A DNA stretch of 64,000 bases. It comes from Candidatus Marinacidobacterales bacterium (GTDB taxonomy: Bacteria > Acidobacteriota > Vicinamibacteria > Marinacidobacterales > SMYC01). The DNA is taken from contig OZ253507.1 of assembly GCA_965262245.1 (NCBI GenBank), positions 8,796,911 through 8,860,910 on the forward strand. Reading direction: 5' to 3'. Shown in pieces: positions 1,384 to 55,670 of this stretch (positions are counted from its first letter, which is position 1; every line of letters starts with the position of its first letter). The position numbers and the translations under genes were made by a program. Under the pieces are notes generated by a model, which saw only the letters and a list, made by a program, of their open reading frames with translations, ran no database searches and had not been told where the DNA came from.

Positions 1384-2307
1384 TCATCTTTGTGGTTCTT
1401 CATGAGGGTCCTCCGTCTGGAGCACGTAGGCGTGACGAGACTTTGGAAGGTACGAGCGAAGATTTCGGAGTTTATGGATCTGGCACCTTTGGATGACCGC
1501 GAGATCCCCCAAAACGTCGACGAGCGCCTTGCGGATACCTTTGCCTCCGTCCACTACACAGAGAATCGACTCATCGACGCGCAAACCCCGCTCGAGAAGG
1601 TCCTGCAACATCGCGGTGCACACGCGAGAGTTTTCCGTCGAACCCAGCCATATGCCCAGGGGCACCTTCGTCCCATCTATTGTGATACCGAGAGTTACGA
1701 CGACGGTCTGTCCGGCCACCTCAAGGCCATCCATCATCAGTGCCGCAAGCTCAAACGACTCCAGCCGCCGAGACAGGTATTCCTCGAGCTTCTGCGTCGT
1801 CTGGCTCACGAGGTGACGGCTGGCGGCACTCTTGCTCGTGCCACGAGACTTCAACTTGGCCGCGGGTTTGTCCAGACTCGATTCGTAATTTCGGGTCGAT
1901 ACCCCCACCAAGATCTGATTCAACACTCGCTCTGGAAGCGGGTCTTCTTCGCGGAAGGCTTCGAAGTGTGGAAGCGACGCCTCCTCGCCCGACTTCGAAC
2001 GAACTCGAGGTCGCGACACTTGGATTCGACGACCACTGAAGCTCAGCTCTCCGTTCGTGCTCCCCCAGTGGTTATGAGTTCGCCCCTTCTCGTGCTTGCC
2101 CTTGGGCCCGGCGATCTCCTCGGCGTCCTCTTTCAGGAGTAGGTGCAGAGCTGTCAGTCCTTGCTCGTACACCCATTCCGTCAAGTCCGCCTTCGTGGCC
2201 GCGATCCCCGCTATCATCGGTAGCAGTATCTGACCGACTTGGCCGACTACCTCGCCCGTAGGCGATTGCGTTTGCTTTCTTACTGGCTTCTTTGATTTCC
2301 TTGGCAT
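1384..2307 (-). pseudogene. IS256-family (mutator-type) transposase, C-terminally truncated (~307 of ~400 aa)
   Basis: MMDGLEVAGQTVVVTLGITIDGTKVPLGIWLGSTENSRVCTAMLQDLLERGLR and CQIHKLRNL are IS256-family signatures; the ORF ends prematurely next to the rve fragment. Confidence 0.75.
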
Positions 2308-2379
2308 GGTGGCTCCTTGTCCCCCTCTGGAGACGGTTGTTTGGCACGACCTATTCTTAGGCCGGCCAAGGAGCCGCCG

Positions 2380-3840
2380 CTACCCAAAATTCAACATCCG
2401 GCGGGACATCCCCTCGAAACGACTCTCCATCCTCAGACTGGTGATCTCGGTTCCCCAGGTCCGCCCCAGCAGCCAGCGCGGTGCGGTGATCGCTGCTTGC
2501 AACTCCTGGCCGTAGAGCACGTGACGAGTGAACACTACCGCTTGCGTCTGAGGCTGGCCGTCACCACCCATAGTGCCGAACACCAGGGTACGCCCGTCGT
2601 TCAGCAGCGCGAGTGGAGGTTGAATGGTGTGAAACGGCCGGCGGCGCGGTTTGAGCTCATTCAGCGAGTGCTTGTCCAGCGCAAAACTGCAGCCGCGGTT
2701 CTGCCAGGTGATGCCGGTATCCGGCAACACCACCCCCGAACCGAACTCCCAGTAGAGGCTTTGGATCATGCTGACCGCCCGACCAGTGGCATCGATTGCG
2801 CCCAGCCAAACCGTATCGCCCGCCGTCGCGGGATGGGGCCAGGGTGCCGCTCGCTCGCGATCGATGTCGGCCGCCATGGCATCGAGTGCCTGCTCGGTGA
2901 GGAATTCGGCCGGGTCCCGAGGCATGTAATCCGGATCCGTGACCTGCGCATCCCGCACCCGGATTGCCTGTTTGGTGGCCTCGACCAGACCGTGTACGAA
3001 ATCAAAGCTCTCCACCTTGCTGACACCTAACCGATCGAACACCCCCAACAGGATCAGCGACGCCAGTCCCTGGGTGGGGGGTGGCAGATTGAAAATCCGG
3101 CCGCAGTCGAGCGCCAAACAAAGCGGCACGACGTCGAGGCAACGGTAGCGTTTGAGGTCTTCGTGCCCGAGCGGGCTGGCGGCTGCCTGCAAGCCGGCCC
3201 CGATGCGGCGAGCCAGCTCGCCGCGGTAGAAATCATCGAGACCGTTGCGCACCAGCAGTTTCAGGGTTTCCGCAAGTGCGAGGTTCCTGAACAGCTCACC
3301 GGCAACCGGGATCCGTCCGCTCGGCATGTACAGGTCGTGGAACCCGACCGTATCCGCCATCTGATTGTGCCTTGCTGCGGTGTGACTGCTTTGACTGGCC
3401 GATACGGCAAAACCGTGTTCCGCGTAGAACACGGCATCTTCGAGCAGGCGGGCAAGTGGCAGACGGCCACCCCAGGTCCTGCCGACTTCGAAGGCGCGCT
3501 GCCAGCCGGAAACCGCGCCCGCTACCGTGAGGGCGGCACGGGGACCACGCGCCGGTATCGCCGCATCGCCGTGGTCGAGATAGTAGCGGGTGTCGGCGGC
3601 ATCGGCAGCGCCTCCGCAGGCATCGATACCAGCCGGCTCACTGCCGGGGGTGTGGAACAGCCAGAAGTTGTCACCGCCCAGACCGTTCATGTGCGGGTAC
3701 ACGACGGCGATAGTACTGCATGCTGCCAGCATTGCCTCGATGGCATTGCCACCTTCGGCAAGCACGCGTTGCCCCGCGCGCGCGGCGAGGTAGTGCGGCG
3801 CCGTTACCATACCCTGGTAGGCACGTCGGGTCTGCAGCAT
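2380..3840 (-). CDS. ggt: gamma-glutamyltransferase family protein (Ntn hydrolase)
   Basis: 486-aa ORF with a GGT-family layout; GDTVWLGAIDATGRAVSMIQSLYWEFGSGVVLPDTGITWQNRG nucleophile-region motif. Confidence 0.7.
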   Translation of the reverse strand: MLQTRRAYQGMVTAPHYLAARAGQRVLAEGGNAIEAMLAACSTIAVVYPHMNGLGGDNFWLFHTPGSEPAGIDACGGAADAADTRYYLDHGDAAIPARGPRAALTVAGAVSGWQRAFEVGRTWGGRLPLARLLEDAVFYAEHGFAVSASQSSHTAARHNQMADTVGFHDLYMPSGRIPVAGELFRNLALAETLKLLVRNGLDDFYRGELARRIGAGLQAAASPLGHEDLKRYRCLDVVPLCLALDCGRIFNLPPPTQGLASLILLGVFDRLGVSKVESFDFVHGLVEATKQAIRVRDAQVTDPDYMPRDPAEFLTEQALDAMAADIDRERAAPWPHPATAGDTVWLGAIDATGRAVSMIQSLYWEFGSGVVLPDTGITWQNRGCSFALDKHSLNELKPRRRPFHTIQPPLALLNDGRTLVFGTMGGDGQPQTQAVVFTRHVLYGQELQAAITAPRWLLGRTWGTEITSLRMESRFEGMSRRMLNFG

Positions 3841-3986
3841 TGAGGCCGTTTTCGAATACTAAGCGGACGATTCCGCTCCTGCAAGTGTGAATGCGCCGTG
3901 GCCGCCGACGCAAGCCGTCTCACTCACGCGACACGTGATTCATACGCGACGCATCCGCCGCCGTGTGAAAGGCAATGATGAGGTAG

Positions 3987-4262
3987 GATAGTTTTCTCCA
4001 ACCACGCCCCTCAGGGTCACGGATGCGGAGATCGGCATCGCCGACGATCAGCTGGAGTCGCTGTTCGATGAATTCACCCAGGCCAACAGCTCGACATCGC
4101 GACGCTACGGCGGCACCGGCTTGGAGCTTGCGATCAGTCGCCGTTTCTGTCGCTGATGGGCGGCGATATCACGGTCGAGAGCAACCCCAACAAAGGCACG
4201 ACGTTTGTCATGCAACTGCCGACCAACCCGGCCGCTCCACAGTCCGACGCGAGGGGCGGATA
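3987..4262 (+). pseudogene. histidine-kinase HATPase_c remnant, 5'-truncated, one frameshift
   Basis: Translation ..[45 protein letters not shown] / [23 protein letters not shown] is the G1/G2-box region of a sensor kinase; the frame breaks at a CC homopolymer near 4143. Confidence 0.55.
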
Positions 4263-4369
4263 GGTCCAGAACGTGGACATCGCTACGATGTGCGTCGCTG
4301 TTCCGTGACACGATGCGCCTGGTAACGTCGCTGGACAGTATCGCACGGATTGTGGTGTGATCGTTTGCT

Positions 4370-5475
4370 ATGGATGACATGCCGAGCAGTCGGACACCCG
4401 CCCTTTTCGACGCGCTGGACCCGCTACCAAGACTGCTGATGGGTCCGGGTCCGGTCGACGTCTATCCGCCGGTATTGCATGCCATGGCAACACCCATGCT
4501 GGGTCAGTTCGATCCACAGTTTACCGCCTACATGGACGAGGTCATGGTGTTGTACCGGCAGGTGTTTCGTACCGACAATCAGTGGACGCTGCTGGTCGAC
4601 GGCACGGCCAGAGCCGGTATCGAAGCCTGTCTGGCATCCCTGATCACGCCGGGGGATACGGTGCTGGTGCCGGTGTTCGGGCGTTTCGGGCACTTGCTGA
4701 TGGAGATCGCGGCGCGCTGTGACGCGCGCGTCGAATCGATCGAAACCGAGTGGGGCAGCGTGTTCGAGCCCGACCAGATCGCCGACGCGGTGCGTCGACA
4801 TCGGCCCAAGGTACTGGCGATGGTTCATGGTGACACCTCGACGACCATGGCGCAGCCGCTCGACGAAATCGGGGCGTATTGTCGTGACGCGGATGTCCTG
4901 GTTTACGTTGACTCCACGGCGACGCTCGGTGGCAATCCGCTGGAAGTCGATGCGTGGCAGCTCGATGCCGTGACCGCCGGATTGCAGAAATGTATGTCAG
5001 GCCCCCGGGTTCTGCGCCAGTCACTTTCAATGAACGCGTGGCGGACGTCGTCAATACGCGTAAACACATCGAACTCGGCATTCGCCCGCAAGGAGCCCGG
5101 GACGCTGCAGGCGGCCGTATACGCTCGAACTATTTCGATCTGCCGATGCTGATGGACTACTGGTCGCCGGCACGCCTGAATCACCACACCGAGGCGACCA
5201 GCATGCTCTACGCAGCGCGCGAGTGCGCCCGCGTAGTATTGGCCGAGGGTCTGGAGCAGGGGTTTCAGAGACACGCCGTTACCGGGCGCGCGTTGCGTGC
5301 CGGGCTCGAGGCTATGGATCTGCAACTATACGGCGACCCGGGTGCGCGGATGGCGAACGTGACCGGCGTAGTGATTCCAGATGGCATCGACGGTGATCGG
5401 CTGCGAACCGAAATGCTGGAGGATTTCGGTATCGAGATCGGCACCTCGTTCGGCCCGTTGCACGGCAAGATCTAG
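4370..5475 (+). CDS. class-V aminotransferase (serine-pyruvate / alanine-glyoxylate / ureidoglycine-glyoxylate, PucG/AGXT-like); split into two ORFs by a 1-bp indel in a C5 run near 5002-5006
   Basis: N-terminal LLMGPGPVDVYPPVL and C-terminal NYFDL..YWS..HHTEATSMLYAAREC follow AGXT-family order. ORFs 4370..5152 and 4954..5475 are the same protein in frames offset by one at ggcccccgggt. Confidence 0.75.
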
Positions 5476-5637
5476 CGGATCGGTACCATGGGTCACGTTT
5501 GTCGCCGAACGAGCGTATTCCGCTGTCTTACTGCACTGGAAGCCGTGCTCCGTCGGCAGAACTATACTTCGAGCCTTGGTGCGGCGGTCGATGCCGCCTA
5601 CGCCGCCTACGAACAGCCGAGCTGAGCCGTCGCGCCC

Positions 5638-7083
5638 ATGTCGAAACCGCCAGATCGTAAACGCCTCGATCATGTAACCGGCGTCATCAACGTGGGTCTC
5701 GATGCGTTCGCCAGTGACCTGGCAGAGCTCGGTGTCGATGTCGTGCACGTGGACTGGGCTCCGCCCGCTGGCGGCGATCCGGAGCTGGCGTCGCTGCTCG
5801 ATCAGCTCGATGACGTGTCGGCGAGCGGCCTGAGTTCGCGCGTCGAGACGGCCAATCGGGAGGCATTGCAGCGCATCCTGGCTGCAGACCCGGTGCTGAT
5901 CGATGTCGTGCCAGCGTCTGAATGCATCGCCGGGCTGGGGCCGCAAATGATCCTGCATGCCGGCCCGCCAATCGACTGGCAGCGTATGTGCGGGCCGATG
6001 CGGGGTGCGGTGGCCGGGATCGCGGTTTTCGAGGGCTGGGCGGAGGATCTGGCCGCGGCGGAACGCATGGCGGCGCGCGGTGCTTTCGACTTTCAGCCCA
6101 ACCATCACTTTGCCGCCGTTGGACCGATGACCGGTCTGACCACGATGTCCCAGCCACTGATGGTAGTAGAGAACAGGGCGTTCGGCAACCGTGCGTATTG
6201 CACGATCAACGAAGGCCTGGGAAAAGTCATGCGCTTCGGTGGCAACGACGCGGATGTCCTCAGCCGGCTCGCGTGGCTGCGTGACGTGCTCGGTCCGGTG
6301 TTGGGCGATGCTTTGCGTGACATGCGGGGCGTCCCACTCAAGAACCTGGTGGCCCGCGGTCTCGGGATGGGTGATGAGATGCACCAGCGAAACGTTGCCT
6401 GCACGGGACTGCTGTTGCGAGCATTGGCGCCCGCGCTGGCGCGGCGTTGTAACGATAGCGAAACGCTCGCGCAAGCTCTGACGTTCATCGCTGGCAACGA
6501 CCAGTTCTTCCTCAATATCGCGATGGTGCTCGGCAAGGCGATGATGGATCCGGTGCGCGGTATCGAAGCGAGCACCGTGGTGACCGCCATGTCCCGCAAC
6601 GGTACCGATTTTGGCATCCGAGTGAGTGGCACCGGCGATGAGTGGTTCATCGCGCCGGTGGAGATGCCGCAGGGCCTGTACTTCCCGGGGTTCAGCGAGG
6701 TTGACGCCAACCCGGACATGGGTGATTCGACGATCGTCGAGACCGTCGGGCTTGGCGGATTTGCGATGGGCGCAGCGCCAGCGGTGGCAGGGTTCGTAGG
6801 GGCCGGACAAGCATCCGAAGCGGCGCTCTTCACACACCGTATGCGTGAGATCACCGTCGGTGGGAACCCCGAGTGGACGATACCCGCGCTTGACTACCTG
6901 GGCGTACCAACCGGCATCGACATTCGCCGCGTCGTCGCGAGGCGCATCGCCCCGACCATCAACACCGGCATTGCGCACCGCGAACCCGGAATAGGGCAGG
7001 TCGGCGCCGGGGTTGTCGAAGCACCGCTCGGCTGCTTTGAGCAGGCGTTGCGTGCCTTCGCGGCCAGCATGGGTATCCGATGA
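5638..7083 (+). CDS. ylbE: DUF1116-family protein (YlbE-like)
   Basis: 481-aa ORF directly upstream of, and overlapping by 4 bp, an FdrA-like gene, as in the E. coli fdrA-ylbE-ylbF-ybcF locus. The assignment rests on recalled family resemblance. Confidence 0.55.
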   Translation: MSKPPDRKRLDHVTGVINVGLDAFASDLAELGVDVVHVDWAPPAGGDPELASLLDQLDDVSASGLSSRVETANREALQRILAADPVLIDVVPASECIAGLGPQMILHAGPPIDWQRMCGPMRGAVAGIAVFEGWAEDLAAAERMAARGAFDFQPNHHFAAVGPMTGLTTMSQPLMVVENRAFGNRAYCTINEGLGKVMRFGGNDADVLSRLAWLRDVLGPVLGDALRDMRGVPLKNLVARGLGMGDEMHQRNVACTGLLLRALAPALARRCNDSETLAQALTFIAGNDQFFLNIAMVLGKAMMDPVRGIEASTVVTAMSRNGTDFGIRVSGTGDEWFIAPVEMPQGLYFPGFSEVDANPDMGDSTIVETVGLGGFAMGAAPAVAGFVGAGQASEAALFTHRMREITVGGNPEWTIPALDYLGVPTGIDIRRVVARRIAPTINTGIAHREPGIGQVGAGVVEAPLGCFEQALRAFAASMGIR

Positions 7084-8588
7084 GCATATCCCTGCACCGA
7101 GTACGGACCGGTTTTTTTCTCGACTCGGTCGCCCTCATGCGCATCTCGCGAGCCGTGGCCGACAGCGACGGTGTCGAGGACGCCGCACTGATGATGGGTT
7201 CGCCAACCAATCAACGACTCATGCTCGATGCGGGACTCCTGAGTGGCGACGGTATCGACGCGAGTGGTGGTGATCTGGTGATAGCGGTTCGCGCGCGCTC
7301 AGGGGCTGCGGCGGAACAGGCGCTCGAAGCTGCCGAGTACGCGCTTGATGCGGATCGCGGTTCGCGCGGCCAGCAGAAGACTGGCGGCTTTCGACCGCGC
7401 GACCTGCGCGGTGCCTCGCAGGTGCTGCCGGTTGCCAACCTGGTGTTGATTTCGGTGCCGGGTTCGTACGCCGCTGCAGAAGCGCGCAAGGCACTCGCAA
7501 GCGGCCGGCATGTGATGATCTTCAGCGACAACGTGGCGCTGGCCGATGAGGTGGCGCTCAAACGCCAGGCGCGGGATCTCGGCTTGCTGGTGATGGGGCC
7601 GGACTGCGGCACCGCCATCATCGATGGCGTGCCGCTGGCGTTCGCGAACCGCGTCTCGAGGGGCGAGATCGGCATCGTCGGTGCATCCGGGACGGGAATG
7701 CAGGAGGTGTCGTCGCTGCTGTCCGAAGCCGGGGGCGGTGTTTCTCATGCACTGGGCGTGGGCGGGCGTGACCTCAGCGAAGCGGTGGGCGGGATTTCGA
7801 CCCTGATGGCCATGGAAGTACTCGAAGCCGACCCCGGCACTCGACATATCGTGCTGATCTCCAAACCGCCTGCCGGTGATGTCGTTGCACGCATTACGGC
7901 AAAGATCGCCGCAAGTGCAAAATCCTACACCGTGTGTTTTGTCGGGGCGGATAGTATTCCGTTGCCTCATAACGCCACCATGGCGCGTACCCTGAAGGCC
8001 GCGGCCGAGCAGGCACTCGGCGGCGTAAGCCTTGCGGGTCCCGAAGCGGTCCGGGTCGAAACGCACCGGACCATTGCGCGCGGTAGCCGTGTGCGAGGAT
8101 TGTTCGCTGGTGGTACGCTCGCCGCCGAAGCTCAAGTGGTGTTTACCGAGGCCGGTGAAGCCGTGGCGTCCAACGCCCCAGTTCCCGGGGCGAGGGAACT
8201 GGCGCGAGCCGACGGTGCACACGTCCTGCTGGATCTGGGCGATGACGAGTACACCCGGGGTCGGCCACATCCCATGATCGATCCCGCCGTGCGCGATGCG
8301 CCGCTCGCCGAGGCGTTCGCCGACGCCGGCGTCGGGGTCATTTTGCTCGACATCGTGATAGGTCAGGGTGCCGCGGAAGATCCCGCGGGCCACCTGGCAA
8401 ACTGTCTGAACGGGCGCGGCGAACAGCTACCCGTTATCGTCTGTTCGGTCACCGGCACGCGTGGCGATCGGCAGGACCGGTCACAGCAGATCGCGACACT
8501 GCGGGAGGCTGGTGTCGTCGTGGCCCCGTCGAACGCGGATGCCGCGGCGCTGGCGCTCGAGTGTCTCGGTAGCCGGCGAGGCGGCTAG
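7080..8588 (+). CDS. fdrA: FdrA-like acyl-CoA synthetase (NDP-forming) with CoA-binding and succinyl-CoA-synthetase-alpha-like domains
   Basis: LVMGPDCGTAIIDGVPLAFANRVSRGEIGIVGASGTGMQEV matches the SCS-alpha/FdrA CoA-ligase motif; 502 aa; translationally coupled to its neighbours. Confidence 0.7.
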   Translation: MSISLHRVRTGFFLDSVALMRISRAVADSDGVEDAALMMGSPTNQRLMLDAGLLSGDGIDASGGDLVIAVRARSGAAAEQALEAAEYALDADRGSRGQQKTGGFRPRDLRGASQVLPVANLVLISVPGSYAAAEARKALASGRHVMIFSDNVALADEVALKRQARDLGLLVMGPDCGTAIIDGVPLAFANRVSRGEIGIVGASGTGMQEVSSLLSEAGGGVSHALGVGGRDLSEAVGGISTLMAMEVLEADPGTRHIVLISKPPAGDVVARITAKIAASAKSYTVCFVGADSIPLPHNATMARTLKAAAEQALGGVSLAGPEAVRVETHRTIARGSRVRGLFAGGTLAAEAQVVFTEAGEAVASNAPVPGARELARADGAHVLLDLGDDEYTRGRPHPMIDPAVRDAPLAEAFADAGVGVILLDIVIGQGAAEDPAGHLANCLNGRGEQLPVIVCSVTGTRGDRQDRSQQIATLREAGVVVAPSNADAAALALECLGSRRGG

Positions 8589-8590
8589 CT

Positions 8591-9523
8591 ATGGTGTTCC
8601 CGATCCCTGATCGTCTGCTGGTCGCGATCGGCGGCAACGCGACTCACCCCGAGGACATCGAAGGGACCTCCAACGAGCAGAAGGCGATAGCGGCTCGTAC
8701 CGCTACTTCGCTGCTGCCGCTGTTGCTGCAGGACAACGAGTTGATCATCACGCACGGCAACGGTCCGGTGGTTGGCAAGATATTCATGCGCCAGGCGCTT
8801 ACGCGCGATCGCATCGCGCCGATGCCGCTCGATATCTGCGTCGCCCACAGCCAGGGCGGTATCGCTTACCTGCTCGTGCAGGCACTGGAGAGCGCGCTGC
8901 GCAGGGCCGGCAATGAGCGCCATGTCGCGTGCCTGCTTACCCGGGTCGAGGTCGACGGCGAGGACCCGGAGTTCGCACAGCCGACCAAACCGATCGGCCC
9001 GTTTTTCAGCGCGGCAGATGCCGCCGCCGTACAGGCCGAACTCGGCTGGTTGATGAAACCGGACGGCGCTCGTGGCTGGCGCCATGTTGTGCCGTCACCC
9101 GAACCGCTGCATATCTGTGACATTTCACTGGTCGAGGAGCTGGCGCAACGGGGTACGGCGGTGATCGCCGGGGGCGGTGGCGGTATTCCGGTCGTGCGCG
9201 CCCCCGATGGCGCGCGATGCGGTGTCGAAGCCGTCATCGACAAGGATCGGACATCAGCGCACATGGCCAATATTCTGGGCATCGAGACGCTGTTGATCCT
9301 CACCGCGGTGGAGCAAGTGTCAGTGGATTTCGGCGGGCCTAACGAGCGCTCGCTCGATACCGTGAGTCTGCAAGAGATCCGCCGCCTGCGTGCCGAACAT
9401 CAGTTTCCACCGGGCAGCATGGGTCCGAAGATCGACGCCGCGATTCACTTCATTGAAGGTGGCGGCGAGCGGGCAGCATTACGCGGCGAAGCCGGCACCC
9501 ATATCGTGCGAGACGATGCTTGA
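8591..9523 (+). CDS. arcC: carbamate kinase
   Basis: LLVAIGGNA ... ITHGNGPVVG amino-acid-kinase / carbamate-kinase motifs; 310 aa. Confidence 0.8.
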   Translation: MVFPIPDRLLVAIGGNATHPEDIEGTSNEQKAIAARTATSLLPLLLQDNELIITHGNGPVVGKIFMRQALTRDRIAPMPLDICVAHSQGGIAYLLVQALESALRRAGNERHVACLLTRVEVDGEDPEFAQPTKPIGPFFSAADAAAVQAELGWLMKPDGARGWRHVVPSPEPLHICDISLVEELAQRGTAVIAGGGGGIPVVRAPDGARCGVEAVIDKDRTSAHMANILGIETLLILTAVEQVSVDFGGPNERSLDTVSLQEIRRLRAEHQFPPGSMGPKIDAAIHFIEGGGERAALRGEAGTHIVRDDA

Positions 9524-10448
9524 TTCTAGCCAGCGTCTGGCGATCAGTGCTATCGAAGTCGGTTGTATTGCGCAGCCGAGTCTGATAGCGGGCACCGAGT
9601 TTCGGGTGGCTTCGGTGTTCACGCGCAGCTGCTACCTGGTGTCAGTGACCGGCGACTGGATCTGCCTGCTGCCCGAGACGGCTACGGCCGACCCGCTGGG
9701 CGTGCGGCTTCGCGTGTCTGGCGGTGTGGACTGGCACGCAAGCGGGGTGGCCGCCGGCATGCATTGCTGGTGCGGCGTATCGGCACTTTATGTCGGCGCG
9801 CGACTGGCGATACACCTCAGTGATGCACCCACCTGGACTCCGTCGGCGCCGCCGCCATGCAACAGGGTGTCGCTGATGCGGGGCTTGACGTGTCTCGATG
9901 CAAGCGCGATGACACGGGATGCCGGCGAGAAGCAGGGGTTGCTGTCGCTCGTCTACCCTGCAGCTGGGTATGCTGGCCGTCTTGCGCACGCCGCGGACCC
10001 GACGGTCCGGGCATTACGCGCGTGGTTGAGGCAGGCGCTGCCGGCGGCGACGGTCATGGCTCCGCCTGCGCTCGACTCGCTGGTCGGACTCGGTCCGGGT
10101 CTCACCCCATCAGGTGACGATTTCATCGGCGGCGTTCTGGCCACGTTGTATCAACTGGGCTACCAGCCGGTTGCCGAGCGGCTCTACGAGACCGCCGCGC
10201 CGCTCGCGGCGCAATCCGGCAATCCGATCAGCGCCGCCTACCTTGCCGCTGCTGCGCGCGGGGCGGCGAATGCTGACATTCATCGAGGATTGCACGCAGT
10301 GCTCAACGGTGACATGGACGAGATTGGCGAAGCGTTGCGGGCGATTGGCGGTATCGGGCACACGTCGGGATTCGATACGTTTGCCGGTGTCATCGTGACG
10401 CTGCGTTGCATAGCCGAATTCGAGTTCGGCGGGTGCCCAACCAGATGA
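9516..10448 (+). CDS. ylbF: DUF2877-family protein (YlbF-like); likely start ATG at ~9516, overlapping the carbamate-kinase stop (ATGCTTGA)
   Basis: 310-aa protein after carbamate kinase in the position YlbF holds in the E. coli locus; 8-bp overlap implies translational coupling. Confidence 0.5.
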   Translation: MLDSSQRLAISAIEVGCIAQPSLIAGTEFRVASVFTRSCYLVSVTGDWICLLPETATADPLGVRLRVSGGVDWHASGVAAGMHCWCGVSALYVGARLAIHLSDAPTWTPSAPPPCNRVSLMRGLTCLDASAMTRDAGEKQGLLSLVYPAAGYAGRLAHAADPTVRALRAWLRQALPAATVMAPPALDSLVGLGPGLTPSGDDFIGGVLATLYQLGYQPVAERLYETAAPLAAQSGNPISAAYLAAAARGAANADIHRGLHAVLNGDMDEIGEALRAIGGIGHTSGFDTFAGVIVTLRCIAEFEFGGCPTR

Positions 10449-22604: not shown

Positions 22605-23723
22605 CTACTTCGTCTTCTGCTCTGCCATAACGGCGCAGGCAATCGCCCAAACAAAACCGCTCAGTTCTCTTGCGATCGCCGTCGCGACCTTTCCTGGTTC
22701 CTTTCCGTTGCGTTGCAAAACCCGGTAGCGATTGCACAGCCGCTTCTGCGCCTTCCATGCAATCGCCTGCGCTGGTTTCGTCGCCTTCTCCGCTTTCTTC
22801 TGCATGTGGTAGCTCTGCCGTGCCGGAAACCGGTACGACCATGCCGCTTCGACCAATAGACGACGCACACGACCGTTGCCCGTTTTAGTGATCCCACCGC
22901 GCTTCTGCTTGCCGCCGCTCGTATGCTCAGAGGGAACCAAGCCAACGTACGCCATCAACTCGCGAGGCGAGTCGAATCGGCTGATATCACCGAGCTCCGT
23001 CACCAGCGACATCGCAGTCAACAGCTGCACCCCACGAAGCGCCATCAACGATTCCACCACTGGTTTCAAGCTCCAGTTCGCAAGGACTCTCTCCATCTCC
23101 TTGTCTAGACCTCGAACACGCTCCTCCGTTTGTTTCACCGCGCCCACGTATTCTTCCAGCACGATCTGCTGAACCGGAAACTTCATCTTCACCTCTGCCA
23201 ACCAGCAGTAGTACCCCTGGGTCCATTTGCTCTTGCCCGCCGTGTACCTCTTGCTGTAGCGCAGGAGAAACGCACTCACGCGCTGTTTCAGCTGCAATTC
23301 CACCCGTTTCATCTCTCCTCGAGCTCGCGTCAAATCTCTTATCGCTTCCTGCTCCTCGTCCGGTACCCAAACCGGCGTCAACTCACCAGAGCGAAACAGC
23401 GACGCTAACTTCAACCCATCGCGACGATCCGTCTTCACTCGCTCGCCAGGTTTCTTCGGAATCAACGACGGCGCCACCACTACACAATCGTGACCCGTCT
23501 CTTTAATCCAACGGTAAACTTCGTATCCACACGGTCCCGCCTCGTAACAGAATCCAAGCACTTCGCCCTCTCGCGAGAGGCGATGGACCAGATTCTGAAT
23601 TGATTTCTTCGTGTTGGCGATCACACCCAGCGATTCGGGCTTGGACCGACCCGGGTTCGCCAACGCTGGCGAGATCGTCTCCTTGTGTACGTCCAGTCCC
23701 ACGTATCCGCTATACTCTTCCAC
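22605..23723 (-). CDS. IS110-family transposase (DEDD), full length 372 aa; the IS110 element spans roughly 22.3-23.8 kb
   Basis: N-terminal YVGLDVHKETI, then ELGDISRFDSPRELMAYVGLVPSEHTSGGKQKRGGITKTGNGRVRRLL, a typical IS110 C-terminal module. Confidence 0.8.
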   Translation of the reverse strand: MEEYSGYVGLDVHKETISPALANPGRSKPESLGVIANTKKSIQNLVHRLSREGEVLGFCYEAGPCGYEVYRWIKETGHDCVVVAPSLIPKKPGERVKTDRRDGLKLASLFRSGELTPVWVPDEEQEAIRDLTRARGEMKRVELQLKQRVSAFLLRYSKRYTAGKSKWTQGYYCWLAEVKMKFPVQQIVLEEYVGAVKQTEERVRGLDKEMERVLANWSLKPVVESLMALRGVQLLTAMSLVTELGDISRFDSPRELMAYVGLVPSEHTSGGKQKRGGITKTGNGRVRRLLVEAAWSYRFPARQSYHMQKKAEKATKPAQAIAWKAQKRLCNRYRVLQRNGKEPGKVATAIARELSGFVWAIACAVMAEQKTK

Positions 23724-27673: not shown

Positions 27674-28696
27674 TCAACGCGCCAAGTTCGGCTCGTACAG
27701 AGTTCCTCGCTTGAGTACAGCGAAGACGATACGGGCCAGTTTGTTCGCCGTGGCGATCGCGGCTTTGTTATGTCCGGTGCGCTTTTGTACTTGTAAAGCC
27801 CATGTGAAGAGCGGATCGGATTTCGAGTTCTTCTGAGCGGCGAGGAGCACCGAGCGGGCCCCATGAGTCAATAGGGTCCTGATATAGACGTTTCCTTGTT
27901 TGCTGATGGTCCCAAGGAAGCGATGCATTCCGGTGGAATGCTCCTTTGGCGTCAGGCCGAGGTAGCTGGAAAATTTGCGGCAGTTTTGGAAGCGCTGGAC
28001 TCCACCACCGACAAAGCCAACGATGGCTGTGGAGGTGATGAGCCCGATTCCAGGAATGCTCCGGAGAATCTCGACAGTTGGGGTCTGCTTGGCGACGGCT
28101 TCGAGGTTCGCCTCGAGTTGTTTGATATTGGTTTCGAGGGTTCGGATTTCGTCGACCATCGCATCTAGGACGCTACGGACAACATCAGGAATCGCAACGT
28201 CTGCATCCTCGACCAAGCCAGGAAGTGCTGAGATGAAACGTTTAGCACCGACGGGGACGAAGATACCGAGCTCCCTCAGAATGCCCCGCGCGGTATTGAT
28301 TCGAGCAGTTCGAGTGGCCATCCAACCTGAACGCGTACGATGAAGGGCGGCCAGGGCATGTTGACCGATGGTTTTGATGGGAACCGGGTGGATATCTTCG
28401 TTGCGGTTGGCTTCCAGAAGCCCCCGAACATCGGTCCGGTCGGTTTTGTTTCGTCGGACGTAGGGCTTGGTGTGAAGCGTGGGTAGTAGCCTCACGGTAT
28501 GACCAAGTTGAGTTATTTCGCGCCCCCAATGATGGGCACTACCGCAGGCTTCCATCACGACCGTCGCCGGCTGACGTTGTACGAAGAAGGGAACAAAATC
28601 GCGACGTCGAAGACGACAACGCTCGGCTACCTTTCCTGGCGTTTTTGACACTGCAATTTCAAAAACCTCTTTTGAAATGTCGCCGGCGAGCGTTGT
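27674..28696 (-). CDS. IS110-family transposase, second copy, with a +1A indel in an AAA run at codon 2 (ATGAAACC); otherwise full length
   Basis: FVQRQPATVVMEACGSAHHWGR (second catalytic region) and the C-terminal IPGIGLITSTAIVGFVGGGVQRFQNCRKFSSYLGLTPKEHSTGMHRFLGTISKQGN. An upstream RBS plus ATG whose corrected reading gives MNHTTLAGDISKEV.. (DxSK box). Confidence 0.7.
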   Translation of the reverse strand, partial: TTLAGDISKEVFEIAVSKTPGKVAERCRLRRRDFVPFFVQRQPATVVMEACGSAHHWGREITQLGHTVRLLPTLHTKPYVRRNKTDRTDVRGLLEANRNEDIHPVPIKTIGQHALAALHRTRSGWMATRTARINTARGILRELGIFVPVGAKRFISALPGLVEDADVAIPDVVRSVLDAMVDEIRTLETNIKQLEANLEAVAKQTPTVEILRSIPGIGLITSTAIVGFVGGGVQRFQNCRKFSSYLGLTPKEHSTGMHRFLGTISKQGNVYIRTLLTHGARSVLLAAQKNSKSDPLFTWALQVQKRTGHNKAAIATANKLARIVFAVLKRGTLYEPNLAR

Positions 28697-28779
28697 ATGG
28701 TTTCATCTGGACTCCTCCTGTGAGTTAACTCTGGCACTGACTTAGTCTGAAGTTCCTTTCCAGAAAAACCGACATCCCG

Positions 28780-31700
28780 TGTTAATCCAGAGGCATAGGC
28801 TGATTGGAAGGTACGCGCTTCTGTCTACACGGTGATACCCTTCAGCAGTTCGTAGGCCCTACGCTGTTTGGAGTCCGGTGATGTAGTCACGTCAAAGGTC
28901 ATGTCGCTCGATGCCGCCCCCGGGGTCCGACATTTGTTTCGGACGATGTTGCTGAGAAGGCGCAGCAGCGTGCGGAAGCTGGAAGCTGGACTCCCATCGT
29001 CAAGCTTCTTGGTCTGTATCTTGCGCATGGCCGCCTCGGAGCGCTTCGCGGGAGCAACGGGGTCACGCTTTGCCTTCGCCTGCTGGTCCTCGTCAGCGAA
29101 TAGCAAGGGCCGCCAAGCCTCCATCATGTGCCACAGGACGTAGTAGGACAGCATACACAAGAAGATGTGCGCCCGGACTCGGTTTTCGCGCCGGTGACGA
29201 ATGGGCCGCACCTTCAGGTCGATGTTCTTGAAGGAACGAAACGCCCTCTCGACCTGGGTCAGCAACTTGTAGCTGCGCACTAAGTCATCTGTTTTCATCC
29301 GCTGTTCAGCAAGACTGGTGCGGATGACGTAGAAGCCGTCAAGTGCAGCTTCCGCAGTGACCTTTGTGTCGTCGATTTCGAAGCTAAAGCTGTTGTCGCG
29401 AATGTCCAGTGTGAAGTGCTTGCCGACTTTGTACTTGTTGAGAACTTTGCCTACCCGCACACCGATTTTATCTTTACCATGCAGCTGACCCTGCCCGATC
29501 CGTTGGCGAATCTGGTCCAACTGCTTAGCGATCGTCTCCACGTGTCGCTTCCACCGCTGGAGCCGTTTGTTGGCGAGCTCTGAGTTGCCGCTGGCGAGGC
29601 GCGAGGCGTCGGCATCCATCGTTGTCTCGTCTAGCAGCCCGGTGAAAAAGTCCAGATTCTGCTCACGGAGAAAGTTTGGTGGGCAAGTTCAAGGAAGATG
29701 TGATTCGGCGGAACGGCCAAGTTGAGACGCCCGATGGATTGCAGCGGGGCAAAACGTGCGCCTATGGTCGAGACGAAGCGCAATAAAGCAGCGATCAGAC
29801 TGGCGTTGAGCTCCGCGTATTCCTTCGGCGTGGCCTTGCCGATGAGATTGCGCATCAGAATCCCGAGATTGAATCCGGCCACGTGCGTGAGGAGGCGCTT
29901 GAGTATATTTTCGTGTCTTCGCAAATGCGTTCGTCGCATGCCTCCCGCTTCGAGGTAGTGCGCGAAAGGTCGTTCGAGTAACTCGCCGCGACGGCGTATT
30001 AATCGCTTACCTCGAGTCCCGCGAATGCGACGTCGGTTCGCGTAGGTGGCGGCTTGCTCGGCCTGTTTGTCCTTCCATTTGCGGCCACCTCGCTCTGGCT
30101 CCGAAATGTAGCTCCGGTATTCTTGTTCGACCAGCTCAACCAGGATGTCGTTGCCGTGATAGCCCTTGTCCCCGACCACTTCGCGACCCGCGTCTTCATG
30201 TATTCGTTCACAACATTCCGCGTTGTTCGCGAGCTCTTGCAGATTTGACTGCGCTTTTTCCAGCGTATCCGGTAGGCTCTTTGTGTCACCCTTCGCGCCT
30301 CCGTGAAGCGTCACGGCAATTACCGCACCTTCCCCGCTCATGTCCACAGCATGCTCGGCTTTGTGCGCCATATCCGTGCCCCCGCTCTTCATTTTCATGA
30401 TCTCCGCATCCGGCTCGTTCGGATTCACCCACTCCTTGTTCGACCCTTTCTTTGGCCGCTTCTTGTCCAACTTTGCAATGTCCGCTCGGCTCGGCTCTTC
30501 GATACCACTCTTGCGCGCAAGCTCCTTCAAATACGATTCGTAGCTTTCCCCCGTGTCTCGACGAACGATTGACCGAAGCGCCGCATTCGCTTCCAGCGTC
30601 GTCGCGTCCACACCCAGTGTCTTGCCATCTATCATCCCTCTCGACGCTAGAACTTCTAGCACCCATCCAAATACAGATTCGTGAACTTCCAGCGGAAGTC
30701 GATTCCGTATCCGAGACAGCGACGAATGGTCCGGCGTTCGCTCTTCCATTCCAAGGCCAAGAAACTGGCGCAAAGACAGTGAGTCCGAACACCGCCAGCA
30801 GATCCCGCGCTCTGAATCGATGCGCTCAAAGTAGCCGATCAACAGCATTCGAAAATACACACCCGGCGGTATGCTCGGCCGACCTTGCTTCTTCGCGTAA
30901 TACGGCGAGCATTTCGACTCCACAAACGAGTCAAACTCTTCCTCTCGAAGTACCCGCTCGAGTTCCTCATAAAAAGGATGACCAGGACTCGACGCAACCG
31001 CATCGTGTGGAATCCATAAAGTCTCTTGGCAACTTTTCTTTTTCTTCTTCATCGACATGCGATGCAATTTTACATCGTCATCGAATGAGTCTTCAGAGAA
31101 ATATCGACCGGATACGACTTTTTCAACGGGCTGCTAGCTCGAAGTCGAAACCGTCGTCACGGATATCGAGTCTGTAGTAGCTGCCGACTTTGTACTTGTT
31201 GAGGAGCTTTTTCACTGCAGCACGGATGTTCTCCTTGCCCTGCAAACGTCGCCGCTCGACCATCCGACAAACCTTCTCAAGCTCCTTGCAGGTCGCTTCG
31301 AGCAGAGCACGACGCTTGTGACGCCGCCTCTCGGCCAGTTCCGGATTGCGGCAAGCGACCAGCCTCTCGTTGGGAAAATCCGGGTGCGTCACCTCAAACA
31401 GATTCCGCTCGTCGAATAGCCCCATCTGGAGCAGCCCATCGTTGATGAGCTTGCGAATCGCCTCGGGTCGAAGAGCGGTAATCCAGTCGACACCGTCCAT
31501 CTCTCGCAACGCGTCGATCTGGGCCTGGGTGATCATCCCGCGGTCGCCCACCATCACAAACTGCTCGATTCCGAACCGCTCTTGCACCTTTTCTATCTGA
31601 GGCAAGAGCGTTTTGGGATCGCCCGAGTTGCCCTCGAAGACGGATACAGACACAGGGATACCGCGTTCGTTGGTCAGTAGACCGTAGTTGACCTGCAGCT

Positions 31701-32345
31701 TGCCTTTCTTGCCGTCACGGTCGTATCCGAGCTTGGCGATCGGACAACTCACACCCTCGAAGTAGCTTGAGGTTAGGTCATAGAGCGCGAGGCCGTCGTT
31801 TTGGAGATGGCGCGCCGCGAGTTTCTTTTCGATGACCTCCTGGCGTTCGAGAACCCAGTCCATGGCGGCATAGAGATCGTCTTCGTCGGCGTCGCTCACC
31901 CCAGGATTTCGGGCAGTGTGGTTGTGTGCCACCACAGGCTAGTCGCCAGCTTCGACTGCGGTTCGAGGATCCGCGCGGCTACCATGGCCATGACCAAATC
32001 CCGCTCTCGTGAGTGTCGAGAGCCAACGAGTTTTTCGAAACCGAGCTGTCTCATGGCGCTGAGCACCGCATCGACGTGGCCATGGAGCCGGGAGCCGTTC
32101 TCGACGATTTCGAAGGCGTCTTCGAGCGAAACGAGCTTCTCCCCTTTGAGAATGCGTTTAATGGCGTCGACTGCGTCCATGGGCAATTTGGACAAGTTAG
32201 CAAGCGTGCGCTTGCGGACGTTTCCACCCACCCGATAGGACTCACGCAGCAGGACGGCAGGCTTAGAGTTGCGATTGGGGATGATGTGGATATGCATGCC
32301 CACTATAATAGCATTAACAATGTTAATAACCTACGGCTATTCTAT
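28780..32345 (-). mobile_element. IS1634-family (IS4-superfamily) element. Its transposase lies in pieces 31896..32303, 31123..31935 and 28825..29619, interrupted by a nested IS5/IS1182-like element
   Basis: Pieces carry LYDLTSSYFEG.., ..VGDRGM.. and ..VRPIRHRRENRVRAHIFLCMLSYYV.. DDE modules in IS1634 order. The reading frame is continuous across the nested insertion once the insertion and one CTAG are removed. An AT-rich terminus lies at 32300-32400. Confidence 0.65.
29631..31132 (-). mobile_element. IS5-family (IS1182-like) element, ~1.5 kb, with 22-bp terminal inverted repeats and a CTAG target duplication; encodes an intact 478-aa transposase (29631..31067)
   Basis: The ends CTAGCAGCCCGGTGAAAAAGTC and GACTTTTTCAACGGGCTGCTAG are reverse complements at 21 of 22. 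The transposase has a DUF772-like N-terminus (YFRMLLIGYFERIDSERG..RQFLGL) and a C-terminal DDE (..ILKRLLTHVAGFNLGILMRNL). Confidence 0.75.
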
Positions 32346-32456: not shown

Positions 32457-33356
32457 CTAGCTCCTGCTGAACGTCGCCTTGAGGATATAACCGGCAATGG
32501 CAGGATTCTTGCGCAGTCTCCGAAGCGAATACGGATACCAGTTGGGGCCGAACGAGACCGACACTCGGAGACGGTGTCCCGCGTCCAGAATGATGCGTCG
32601 GAGCTGGAGGTCGACGCCGTGCAGCATCTGGAACTCGTACTGTGAGGGCTGGAGCCCGAGGCGCTCGATGATCCGGTACGCGGCCCAGACGAGCTGCTCG
32701 TCATGGGTGGCGATACCAACGTAGCAGCCGGCGCTCAAGAGCTCGTCCAGGAGCATCACGTAGTTGTCCCTGATGATCTGCGGGTCCACGAAAGCGATCT
32801 CGCGAGGCTCGATGTAAATGCCTTTGCAAAGCCGCACGTTTGCCTTGACCTCCTGGAGCTTTCGCACATCGGCCAGGCTGCGCCGCATGCGTGACTGGAT
32901 GACCACCCCGGTGTTGTCGAACTCCTCCCTCAGCCGAAAGTAGGTGTCGAGTGTGGCGTCGATGCACGAGGAGTCCTCCATGTCCATGCGCACGAAGTTC
33001 TTTCGTTCGCGCGCATGAGTGAGGATCTGGAGCATGTTCTGGTAGCAGAACTCCTTGTCCAGCTTGAGCCCAAAGTGAGTGAGCTTGACGTGGATGTTGC
33101 TGTCGAGCTTCCTCTCCTCAATCTGGTCGAGGACTTGCTTGTAATCACGAACGGCTTCTTCCGACTCCTCCCGGCGGGTCACGAACTCGCCGAGAATGCC
33201 GGTAGTCACCATGAACCCGTCGCGGTTGAGCTTCTCGGTCTCCCGTATCTGGTCCTCGAGCCTCTCTCCGGCGATGTAGGGCCGGGCAAAGACCCGGACC
33301 AGCGGCTTGGGAACGACGGGCAGCGAGGTCGCGATGAGCTTGTCGAGGGCACTCAT
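32457..33356 (-). CDS. proline dehydrogenase family protein (PutA PRODH-domain-like, monofunctional)
   Basis: 299 aa; NIHVKLTHFGL, VRMDMEDSS and ATHDEQL match the Pro_dh family. Confidence 0.7.
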   Translation of the reverse strand: MSALDKLIATSLPVVPKPLVRVFARPYIAGERLEDQIRETEKLNRDGFMVTTGILGEFVTRREESEEAVRDYKQVLDQIEERKLDSNIHVKLTHFGLKLDKEFCYQNMLQILTHARERKNFVRMDMEDSSCIDATLDTYFRLREEFDNTGVVIQSRMRRSLADVRKLQEVKANVRLCKGIYIEPREIAFVDPQIIRDNYVMLLDELLSAGCYVGIATHDEQLVWAAYRIIERLGLQPSQYEFQMLHGVDLQLRRIILDAGHRLRVSVSFGPNWYPYSLRRLRKNPAIAGYILKATFSRS

Positions 33357-33366
33357 GACGAAAACC

Positions 33367-34555
33367 TCAATCCAGGTCGAGCCATTTCAGGATGCGGTAG
33401 CGTTGACCTCTCCGCCGGCTCATGATCTTCTCGATGATCTCGTCCGAGAGGATCATCGCCTCTTCCGAGAAGTCGCTGAAATAGCGCGCGGTATCCTGAA
33501 AATAGTCCGCGAACGCCAGCCGGTCCTCCTCGGAGAGGATAGTCGAGAGACGTATCGCCTGCTCGACGAAGCGTTCGCGGACAGTGCCGGAGAAGGGATT
33601 GCGCATGAGGATTTCCCGGTAGAGCTCGGGGCTTTGTGAGAAGAGCCGCCCCACCATCGAGACCTCGAGACGGTAGATGGGACTCATGAAGGCAAGTGTC
33701 TCCTCGAGAGACAGTCCCGACTCGCTCAGTGCGCGGCCCATCACCATGGTGCCGAAGTGGGTCATCACTTTGCACGATACCCATCATTCGATCGTGGGTC
33801 TCGGCGTCGGTGCGAATGAGCTCGGCTCCCATGCGCCCGAGCTCCGATTCCAGCCACCCCACCATCGGGCCGGGCGCGACCGGGCAGATCACGATCTTCT
33901 GGCGCCGGAACGAGCGGACCGTTGGCCCGAACATCGGGTGCATGCCGACACTCTCACCGGCGCCGTGCTCGGCGAGTGCCGCACAGACGCCCTTTTTCAG
34001 ACTGTTGATGTCGCACAAGAGGGCGTCCGAGCGCACCCGTGGTCCGAGCGCGGCGGTGACCGACTCCGCTTCGACCATCGGCACCGCCAACATGACGATG
34101 TCGGCTCGCTCGACCCTTGGAGCATCGAGAGGCTCTCCCTTCTCGAGAACATCGACCGGGTGAGCACGTCTCCGAAAGGCCTTTTCAAAGAGGCGCCCCA
34201 TCTTTCCGCGCCCGCCCACGATGAGCACTCGCCGGGTCTCCTCCGACGCCCGAGCCGATGCACTCTCTGTCTCGAGCTCTTCGTCCTCCTCCTGCAAGGT
34301 GTGCGACGCTTCGATGAGCACCGCCATGACCTCACGTACCACCGGTCTCGGCAAGCCCAGCTCGGCTCCGATGTCCTCGGCGCGCCGGAACACTGCGCGC
34401 TCCCGCGAGCGGTCGAAAGAATGCTTGCCCGAAAAGCGCTTAGCTTTCCGAACTTCCGCGACGAGCCGCATCCGCTCCTTGATGAGGTCGAAGAGCGCGC
34501 GGTCGACCCGGTCGAGCTCGTCCCGGATCGTGTCGAGGGATGGCTCCTCTTTCAT
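33367..34555 (-). CDS. tyrA: bifunctional chorismate mutase / prephenate dehydrogenase (TyrA-like), with one +1A indel near 33775
   Basis: N-terminal AroQ chorismate-mutase helix (LDTIRDELDRVDRALFDLIKERMRLVAEV), then a Rossmann fold (VLIVGGRGKMGRLF) and ..GMHPMFGP... The C-terminal third continues in ORF 33367..33768 (..MTHFGTMVMG..SPIYRLEVSMVGRLF..). Confidence 0.75.
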
Positions 34556-36032: not shown

Positions 36033-36263
36033 GGAACATCCTCCTGTGGTTTGGTCCCGGAGAATTGGTCGCCGGGCCAGTCGCCAAACAAGGCTGCACG
36101 TGGCGTGCAGGCTCCCGCTTATTCCCCCCACGCAAAAAGGTGTTGTATTTAGCGGGTGACCCGACGCTCGGGCCACGCACAACCTTGTTTGGCGGGAGTG
36201 AGATTACACCAACTTGCGCGCGCAAGTCGAGCGGAATCTTTGGACCTTTGGGCCATCCGAAAA

Positions 36264-36298
36264 GAGTTGACATTCCTGCTTGCGGAATATATACTTTT
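36264..36298 (+). promoter_or_regulatory. sigma70-like promoter candidate (TTGACA-N17-TATACT) ahead of the IS1-like transposase
   Basis: gagTTGACAttcctgcttgcggaataTATACTtttgattATG. Confidence 0.45.
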
Positions 36299-36302
36299 GA
36301 TT

Positions 36303-47958: not shown

Positions 47959-48148
47959 GTGCGGGCGATGCTCACCGACATGCTCCGATTCTTCGACTTC
48001 TACCTCAAGGACAAGGATCTCGAGCTCCCCGGAGTGGGGCACATTGAGGAGCTCACGCCAGCCAGAAAGTGAAACTGCAGGAGCAAGCTCGTCGCTTCCG
48101 CTCAGCACGTGAGCGACAAGCGACTGAGCTAAAGGAAAGGGTGTAACC

Positions 48149-55382: not shown

Positions 55383-55670
55383 GTGAAGAAAAATCGCACG
55401 AAGCACAGCCCTGTTTTCAAGGCGAAAGTTGCATTGGCGGTACTACGCGAGCAGGAGACAGTGGCGGAACTATCCCGGCGGCACAAGGTTCACGCGAACC
55501 AGATCTACAAATGGAAGCGGCAGCTTTTGGAGAACGTCACGCGTGCTTTCGAGACCGAAGAGGTGGGCGGAGGCGATGCCTCGATGCGCGAGGCCGAACT
55601 GCTTCAGAAAATCGGGGAGCTGACGATGGAGCGCGATTTTTTATCACACGGGCTCGGTCGATTGCGATGA
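55383..55670 (+). CDS. IS3-family OrfA (HTH transposase subunit) ending just after a canonical T-TTT-TTA -1 frameshift heptamer (~55627)
   Basis: ..[33 protein letters not shown].. IS3/IS911 OrfA; the heptamer lies in frame 0 with orfB in frame -1. Confidence 0.8.

Follow-up and report, generated by a model that had tools for sequence, protein, structure and literature searches.

In a 64,000-nucleotide stretch of a Candidatus Marinacidobacterales genome (contig OZ253507.1, positions 8,796,911 to 8,860,910; hereafter the window), we identified a six-gene ureide-catabolic unit belonging to the oxalurate branch of purine and allantoin breakdown. Five co-directional coding regions on the plus strand (positions 4370 to 10448) encode, in order, an (S)-ureidoglycine-glyoxylate aminotransferase (UGXT), AllG, AllF, a carbamate kinase, and AllH; a divergent hpxW-like gene of the oxamate amidohydrolase type lies upstream. 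At a probability of about 0.8, we read this locus as an ordinary, known pathway present as a decaying copy and in the course of being lost. An earlier note, made from the DNA letters alone, had described the five plus-strand genes as a compact, self-contained module that harvests ATP from oxalurate. That description does not hold for the window: the UGXT gene is a pseudogene, the kinase is short by 10 residues, and the amidohydrolase is truncated. The frame breaks in the aminotransferase, the 30-bp deletion in the kinase, and the divergent sixth gene had all been overlooked.

Gene content and layout of the locus

Profile searches bore out the identity, order, and position proposed earlier for all five plus-strand genes. 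allG (5638..7083, 481 aa), apparently intact, encodes the DUF1116 subunit of oxamate carbamoyltransferase. Its product scored 294.5 bits against PF06545 (cutoff, 27) and 389 bits against the solved homologue 3clq, and it is 54% identical over 418 aa to YlbE/AllG of E. coli K-12, whose comparison proteins were taken from locus L007. The likewise apparently intact allF (7080..8588, 502 aa) encodes an FdrA-like subunit resembling succinyl-coenzyme A (CoA) synthetase alpha; it matched NCBIfam NF004760 (FdrA) with 472.5 bits (cutoff, 433), PF00549, PF02629, and PDB entry 3dmy (289 bits), with 43% identity to E. coli FdrA over 494 aa. The intact allH (9516..10448, 310 aa) encodes the DUF2877 subunit and scored 81.6 bits against PF11392 (cutoff, 25). 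AllH is 30% identical to E. coli YlbF/AllH over the C-terminal 140 residues, retains the motifs GPGLTPSGDD and GHTSG common to E. coli YlbF, and is 100% identical to the L001 allele. The 481- and 310-aa proteins thus fall within DUF1116 and DUF2877, as had been proposed, and Pfam now names these families "Oxamate carbamoyltransferase subunit AllG" (PF06545) and "subunit AllH" (PF11392). Judged by these alignments, AllF, AllG, and AllH of the window are clear orthologues of the E. coli proteins.

The carbamate kinase gene (8591..9523, 310 aa; AllK/ArcC type) carries a 30-bp in-frame deletion. Its product nevertheless scored 288 bits against NF009007 (cutoff, 266; intact allele, 309 bits) and 304 bits against TIGR00746 and is 39% identical to E. 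coli AllK; over its whole length, the stretch deleted in the window included, the intact allele aligns with the Pyrococcus furiosus carbamate kinase 1e19. The UGXT pseudogene (4370..5625) was delimited from three-frame translation, the DNA itself, and a table of variants relative to six near-identical contigs. It matches PF00266 (class-V aminotransferase), and its frame-repaired product aligns end to end with the two ureidoglycine-glyoxylate aminotransferases of solved structure, Klebsiella HpxJ (3nnk, 545 bits) and Bacillus subtilis PucG (3isl, 468 bits). The next-best match is an alanine-glyoxylate aminotransferase (AGXT) at 279 bits, in keeping with the earlier assignment of this gene as PucG-like.

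On the minus strand, the truncated hpxW-like gene (2380..3840, 486 aa) encodes a protein of the gamma-glutamyltranspeptidase (GGT)/Ntn-hydrolase family (PF01019, 370 bits). Its top solved relative is Klebsiella HpxW (5hft; 297 bits to chain A and 188 bits to chain B), and the next match scores 231 bits. It falls below the NCBIfam equivalog cutoff for GGT (289 to 317 versus 358 bits), and the Thr343 nucleophile is kept, aligned with residue 1 of the small chain.

The overlaps of 4 to 8 bp described previously for this gene row exist at two of its four junctions: allG and allF share 4 bp (ATGA), and the kinase gene and allH share 8 bp. The other two junctions are gaps, of 12 bp between the aminotransferase and allG and of 2 bp between allF and the kinase. 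Between 3700 and 11200, a promoter scan returned 0 promoter-like sites, though it used a sigma-70 consensus that may not apply to this host, and 6 terminator-like sites were found versus 3.8 ± 1.9 in shuffled sequence, which is not above expectation. No Rfam family matched anywhere in the window at gathering thresholds, and hence no riboswitch or other RNA regulator was found.

Lesions in the window's copy

The exact AllG protein of the window occurs on 12 public contigs, ten of which were retrieved (contigs and loci used for comparison carry L numbers). Lesions were called column by column against six near-identical contigs, 99.3 to 99.7% identical over 8 to 15 kb. In the intact state, present in L001, L004, L005, L094, and L095, the proteins measure 529 (HpxW), 415 (aminotransferase), 481 (AllG), 502 (AllF), 320 (kinase), and 310 (AllH) aa.

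The aminotransferase has been broken twice. One frame is open from 4370 to 5152, through ...GLQKCMSGP, and coding resumes in another frame as PGSAPVTFNERV.... The frameshift stems from a 1-bp deletion (C5 at 5002-5006 versus C6 in intact alleles), five codons past the pyridoxal phosphate-lysine motif QKC; the same deletion is found in L003 and L006, two independent assemblies from other samples. Downstream, a TAG codon at 5473-5475 (change at 5474) stands where every relative has TGG. It is unique to the window and turns the conserved ...GKIWRIGTMG..., with its Trp, into GKI*RIGTMG. One nonsynonymous change (A182S) and two synonymous changes in this gene are also unique to the window. A programmed frameshift was considered and rejected, given the separate downstream nonsense codon and the one additional C in intact alleles.

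All six near-identical contigs have 30 bp (10 codons) that are gone from the window's kinase after position 9475, a change again unique to the window. The deletion takes VIGHLDAALS out of the conserved C-terminal ...GGGERAVIGHLDAALSALRGEAGT..., leaving 310 aa rather than 320. Both P. furiosus 1e19 (IIAHLEKAVE) and E. coli AllK conserve the lost segment, and against the latter the window protein shows the same 10-residue gap.

hpxW is broken at a clean insertion sequence (IS) junction (2413/2414). The last 53 residues, including the conserved ...DPRSDG..., have been exchanged for 11 residues read from the IS, giving 486 aa instead of 529 and leaving the small subunit incomplete (the match spans 134 of 187 residues of 5hft chain B). 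In this IS-associated deletion, the 3' end of hpxW was lost together with about 580 bp of DNA beyond it, and a Mutator-family IS fragment (IS256-like; 1415..2413, minus strand; PF00872) has taken their place: the window aligns with intact contigs at 1-1414 and again from 2414 on, and the stretch 1893-2413 has a match in a transposase gene at another site of L004. The transposase open reading frame (ORF) at 1384-2307 is itself truncated (307 aa, covering profile positions 32 to 275 of 379).

The gravest doubt about such lesions is that they could be sequencing or assembly errors in a five-gene module that is really intact and functional. The 1-bp deletion does lie in a homopolymer (C5 versus C6), a classic site of long-read error, and five near-identical contigs carry fully intact genes. 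Against this, the window differs from L001 by merely two indels over 14.4 kb of aligned DNA, both of them lesions, so the assembly is not error prone. The 1-bp deletion recurs identically in the two independent assemblies mentioned above, the TGG-to-TAG change is a substitution, and neither a 30-bp deletion nor a clean IS junction is an error type. Moreover, the lesions are concentrated in a single operon, which in other strains is damaged in different ways. For these reasons the lesions are unlikely to be assembly noise, and we attach very little probability to an intact, functional module. Annotators should flag the aminotransferase and hpxW, and probably the kinase, as pseudogenes or disrupted genes.

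Recurrent decay across related strains

The cluster is being lost repeatedly and independently across strains of this IS-rich lineage. In L002, a 220-bp element resembling a miniature inverted-repeat transposable element (MITE) interrupts the aminotransferase (L002:8987-9206, at nt 466-471); it has terminal inverted repeats TGTTGTTTAT...ATAAACAACA and an apparent CCATG target duplication. The same strain carries a 626-bp IS200/IS605-type element (Y1 transposase, hairpin ends) in the kinase gene (L002:13837-14462, at nt 884). Two additional frameshifts, in UGXT and the kinase, are present in L003. A sister lineage at 96 to 97% identity has lost other parts: in L098 and L100, the kinase and allH have been lost to an IS and hpxW is a remnant only, and in L099 and L101, allF is reduced to its first 567 nt. 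In a 99% identical lineage (L102-L105), the cluster genes are intact. Taken together, these strains clearly show how, within one IS-rich lineage, an accessory catabolic operon is taken apart again and again in nature; insertion sequences, a MITE, small deletions, and point mutations are the agents.

In the lineage of the window itself, secondary lesions are confined to haplotypes with an aminotransferase already broken (three of four, versus none of five with the gene unbroken). This pattern is suggestive of a single functional unit, in a sample of few and phylogenetically nonindependent strains.

Three side observations concern these strains. The short-read contig L096 begins at the exact nucleotide of the L002 MITE site, as if its assembly had broken on the same repeat. 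The left edge of the window's kinase deletion (9475/9476) lies no more than 2 nt from the IS200/IS605 insertion point in L002, which indicates either an insertion/deletion hot spot or the footprint of an imprecise excision. In L102-L105 (5875-8625), hpxW and the aminotransferase are separated by three adjacent ORFs with PAS and HisKA/HATPase domains, apparently a single sensor kinase in fragments; the window lacks them.

Does the pathway still function in the window strain?

With its first, third, and fourth steps genetically compromised, the whole pathway is most likely nonfunctional in the window strain. Several observations weigh against the decay reading and limit how far it can be taken. 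allG, allF, and allH have no lesion in the window and all three are open, which leaves room for residual function. The kinase's 10-residue deletion and the loss of the HpxW C terminus are presumed to be inactivating. Ratios of nonsynonymous to synonymous substitution rates (dN/dS) across the sister lineages were 0.29 to 0.64 for the six cluster genes versus 0.18 and 0.59 for two flanking controls, giving no specific signal of relaxed selection. Neither an allantoate amidohydrolase nor any other upstream purine-catabolic gene was found within the 64-kb window. Finally, the neighbor-joining tree that places the window's AllG within an alphaproteobacterial clade carries no support values.

The open state of the trio raises the alternative that allG, allF, and allH still work alone on external oxalurate, passing carbamoyl phosphate to arginine or pyrimidine synthesis or to a second kinase, with the flanking genes as dispensable accessories. 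All four lesions lie outside the three genes, whose changes unique to the window are synonymous or conservative (one synonymous change in allG; one synonymous change and the conservative I496L in allF). In addition, nitrifiers are reported to carry allFGHK without upstream purine genes, which has been read as use of cross-fed oxalurate (PMC12625717). The trio makes up about half of the coding length, however, so four lesions would miss it by chance in about 6 to 12% of cases, which is not significant. Sister lineages have allF truncated (L099, L101) or allH deleted (L098, L100), and in the window the trio lies downstream of a pseudogene in the same transcription unit, with no separate promoter detected by the sigma-70 consensus scan. 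We therefore judge an independently working trio to be improbable and retain the reading of a decaying copy in the course of loss.

The predicted pathway

The earlier note regarded oxamate carbamoyltransferase as an enzyme lacking an assigned gene and assigned the DUF1116/FdrA/DUF2877 trio to it. The assignment was right, and the gap had already been closed: the three candidate genes were proposed in 2012 (PMC3364942), and in 2024 Kim and Kim measured the activity of purified E. coli AllF-AllG-AllH and gave the genes the names allFGH and, for the kinase, allK (PMC11326118). Deleting any one of allF, allG, or allH stops oxamate formation in E. coli (PMC11326118). Since the enzyme question was settled in 2024, the window adds no new enzyme.

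From homology to characterized enzymes, an intact unit would work in four steps. UGXT would transaminate (S)-ureidoglycine to oxalurate. AllF-AllG-AllH, by homology and gene context, would then phosphorolyze oxalurate to oxamate and carbamoyl phosphate; that the orthologues here catalyze this reaction (oxalurate + Pi <-> oxamate + carbamoyl phosphate) is drawn by analogy with E. coli. Carbamate kinase is predicted to convert carbamoyl phosphate and ADP to ATP, NH3, and CO2, and the HpxW-like amidohydrolase to hydrolyze oxamate to oxalate and NH3. Such a route would free nitrogen without urea or urease and yield one ATP. With an allantoate amidohydrolase in front, as in proteobacterial clusters, all four allantoate nitrogens would be freed without urea, again for one ATP. 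The chain from UGXT through oxalurate, transcarbamylase, and oxamate to HpxW has been sketched before (PMC5270733).

A different chemistry was raised in 2012 (PMC3364942), in which the FdrA, DUF1116, and DUF2877 proteins make up an NDP-forming enzyme akin to acyl-CoA synthetases, with oxamate or some other acid as its substrate, while the kinase serves some other carbamoyl donor. In favor of it, AllF resembles succinyl-CoA synthetase alpha and contains Pfam CoA-ligase and CoA-binding domains. This idea has to be set against the oxamate/carbamoyl-phosphate reaction catalyzed by the purified E. coli complex (PMC11326118), of whose subunits the window proteins are clear orthologues, and against the position of the trio, in many genomes, between an oxalurate-forming and an oxamate-consuming enzyme, an exact fit to a carbamoyltransferase. 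The probability left to a CoA synthetase is close to negligible. As to mechanism, we make no claim of a phosphohistidine like that of succinyl-CoA synthetase for AllF, the alignment to the alpha subunit of that enzyme stopping before the histidine loop.

Distribution, synteny, and origin

The arrangement was not expected by the earlier note outside enterobacteria and Firmicutes. At least 595 loci with a close AllG relative, mostly in Proteobacteria, turned up when one genome per species was scanned, none of them from a close relative of this species. The arrangement is common rather than exceptional, and clusters of the type AllC-UGXT-AllG-AllF-kinase-AllH-HpxW are frequent in Alpha-, Beta-, and Gammaproteobacteria. 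We analyzed the best 80 relatives, mostly from Alpha-, Gamma-, and Betaproteobacteria; 43 of these loci had enough flanking DNA for partner counts. AllF was present at 36 of the 43 loci, AllH at 27, carbamate kinase at 25, UGXT at 19 (directly upstream and co-directional at 12), an HpxW-like protein at 14, and allantoate amidohydrolase (AllC) at 11; AllD was present at one and AllE at none. The linkage of the aminotransferase to allG and allF, suspected earlier, is thus conserved. Because the same set recurs in dozens of unrelated genomes, the linkage of these genes is beyond chance. Beyond Proteobacteria, allFGHK has been reported in ammonia-oxidizing archaea and comammox Nitrospira (PMC12625717). 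Outside enterobacteria, then, the natural partners of AllFGH and the kinase are UGXT, an HpxW-type oxamate amidohydrolase, and often an allantoate amidohydrolase; AllE and AllD are unusual. This partnership of UGXT, HpxW, and AllC speaks for a complete route from allantoate to oxalate that yields ATP and makes no urea.

The full order AllC-UGXT-AllG-AllF-carbamate kinase-AllH-HpxW was found at four alphaproteobacterial loci (L008, L013, L016, and L023). In L013, the first gene is an allantoate amidohydrolase by NF006775 (537 bits; cutoff, 479), and the unit is bounded on either side by unrelated genes. No paper describing a cluster of the form allC-UGXT-(mini-ORF)-allG-allF-kinase-allH-hpxW was found in the literature; the mini-ORF is described below.

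The top nonself AllG identities, 75 to 78%, are to Alphaproteobacteria. The window's AllG also nests among alphaproteobacterial sequences in the tree, and lateral transfer from that class is the probable source of the cluster in this lineage. Nothing indicated that the cluster is plasmid-borne: megablast of positions 2380-10448 against a plasmid collection gave no match.

Apart from these single-copy clusters, four loci contain two AllG/AllF pairs each (L072 and L073, from Bradyrhizobium, and L042 and L047, from Casimicrobiaceae). In one example, AllH-AllG-AllF-carbamate kinase is followed by a second, more divergent AllF-AllG pair at 40 to 47% identity, which hints at paralogous enzymes with another substrate.

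A mobile segment of about 55 residues

Residues ~9 to 62 of the window's AllG (5662-5823) have their homologue in the final 45 residues, at the C terminus, of E. coli AllF/FdrA (47% identity). The profile and structure searches agree: positions 507 to 554 of NF004760 match AllG residues 10 to 57, and the N-terminal tail of AllG matches positions 430 to 474 of the solved FdrA chain 3dmy. The segment, with the motif ...VxNxGLxxFAxxL...VxWxPPAGGDPxLAxLLSKLG, is fused to the AllG N terminus in the window and 27 of the 80 relatives and to the AllF C terminus in E. coli. It stands alone in 44 of the 80 relatives, as an ORF of 57 to 65 codons just upstream of the AllG core (loci L008-L082; for example, L013:9980-10159), ending in ...DWxPPAGGDPxLAxLLSKLG*. 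No Pfam family covered the segment in the Pfam copy searched, and the mini-ORF may have been overlooked by gene callers.

The length of the window's linker equals exactly the stop codon plus spacer of L013, which is consistent with an origin of the AllG fusion through stop-codon loss. The alternation of the fusions between AllF and AllG would suggest that the segment sits at the AllF-AllG interface, and this makes it a lead for structural work on oxamate carbamoyltransferase.

These observations can be combined into a broader, two-part proposal. First, the cluster allC-UGXT-(mini-ORF)-allG-allF-kinase-allH-hpxW, the eight-ORF form of what is otherwise counted as a seven-gene unit, would constitute an undescribed, distinct route from allantoate to oxalate that is urea-free, ATP-yielding, widespread in Proteobacteria, laterally transferred, and now being lost. 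Second, the segment of about 55 residues would be an unrecognized, fourth component of oxamate carbamoyltransferase. We hold the two parts jointly as a tentative proposal, at slightly less than even odds.

Genomic surroundings

The setting is a large, IS-rich genome. The window has at least 10 transposase-family ORFs and is dense in mobile-element genes, which lie at 817-2307, 22605-23723, 27674-31938, 36153-37181, and 54371-58333; among them are rve_3, Mutator, two IS110, three DDE_Tnp_1, an IS1-like gene, and an rve integrase with an AAA_22 partner. Flanking genes carry planctomycete-type domain families (PSD, PSCyt, HXXSHH, and PF07638), which suggest a planctomycete host; homologues of a housekeeping gene, at about 50% identity, bear mixed names (Planctomycetota, Phycisphaerales, Myxococcota, and Deltaproteobacteria).

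Two further genes of the window appear damaged. An amidase-signature gene on the minus strand (PF01425; 25393-26740), adjoining an aldehyde dehydrogenase, is split into two ORFs matching profile positions 1-92 and 106-285 of 445 and is probably another pseudogene. A chorismate mutase/prephenate dehydrogenase ORF (33353-34555, minus strand) aligns with its 98%-identical homologue along only 66% of its length and is missing PF20463, a C-terminal domain present in homologues; a frameshift is probable here too.

A second GGT-family gene, of canonical length (577 aa), lies with an S9 peptidase gene at 46015-49861, 36 kb from the cluster. In L098 and L100 (13129-17894), the GGT/S9-peptidase pair is inverted and directly beside allF, with only an IS between, implying an IS-mediated rearrangement or deletion of about 35 kb. 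An HpcH/HpaI aldolase and a periplasmic binding protein encoded downstream were considered as cluster members and rejected: a large gene on the opposite strand intervenes, and no linkage to the cluster was seen in sister lineages or other genomes.

Comparison with known systems

The uncharacterized seven-gene clusters in alphaproteobacterial metagenome-assembled genomes (for example, L013, Rhodospirillales; L016, Magnetovibrio; L023; and L008, Rhodobacterales) share the UGXT-to-AllH gene set and order with the window, at identities of 69 to 76% for AllG, 64 to 73% for UGXT, 69 to 73% for the kinase, and 59 to 63% for HpxW. They differ in beginning with an allantoate amidohydrolase, which the window cluster lacks, and in having hpxW as the co-directional 3' end, whereas in the window it is inverted and upstream. 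The tail that is fused to AllG in the window is a separate ORF of about 60 aa in these clusters. L013, the sole cluster read in detail, has no frame-disrupting lesion.

E. coli allFGHK (fdrA-ylbE-ylbF-ybcF; PMC11326118) comprises the same four protein families in a tightly packed single operon, which converts oxalurate and Pi to oxamate and carbamoyl phosphate and from there forms ATP; by analogy, the chemistry encoded here would be alike. The gene order is G-F-K-H in the window and F-G-H-K in E. coli, and the tail of about 45 residues at the AllF C terminus in E. coli is at the AllG N terminus in the window. The source of oxalurate differs: E. coli relies on AllE and AllD, members of its ALL-type regulon that were found neither in the window nor in 42 to 43 of the 43 well-flanked relatives, and the window type would use the ureidoglycine aminotransferase. 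Because the window unit includes an oxamate amidohydrolase, oxamate would not be its end product, in contrast to E. coli allFGHK. The window copy is also partly pseudogenized, unlike the E. coli operon.

The remaining enzymes find their counterparts in Klebsiella. The window aminotransferase aligns over its full length with HpxJ (as it does with B. subtilis PucG), and among solved proteins the product of the upstream gene comes closest to HpxW, with the Thr nucleophile conserved; both genes are broken in the window, unlike those for the Klebsiella HPX enzymes. In the Klebsiella HPX scheme, as cited in PMC12625717, the amidase HpxY hydrolyzes oxalurate, and Klebsiella pneumoniae is without allFGHK according to Kim and Kim (PMC11326118). 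In the window type, AllFGH and the kinase would take the place of the amidase, a scheme that would join HPX-type enzymes (HpxK/J/W) to the energy-conserving step of the ALL type.

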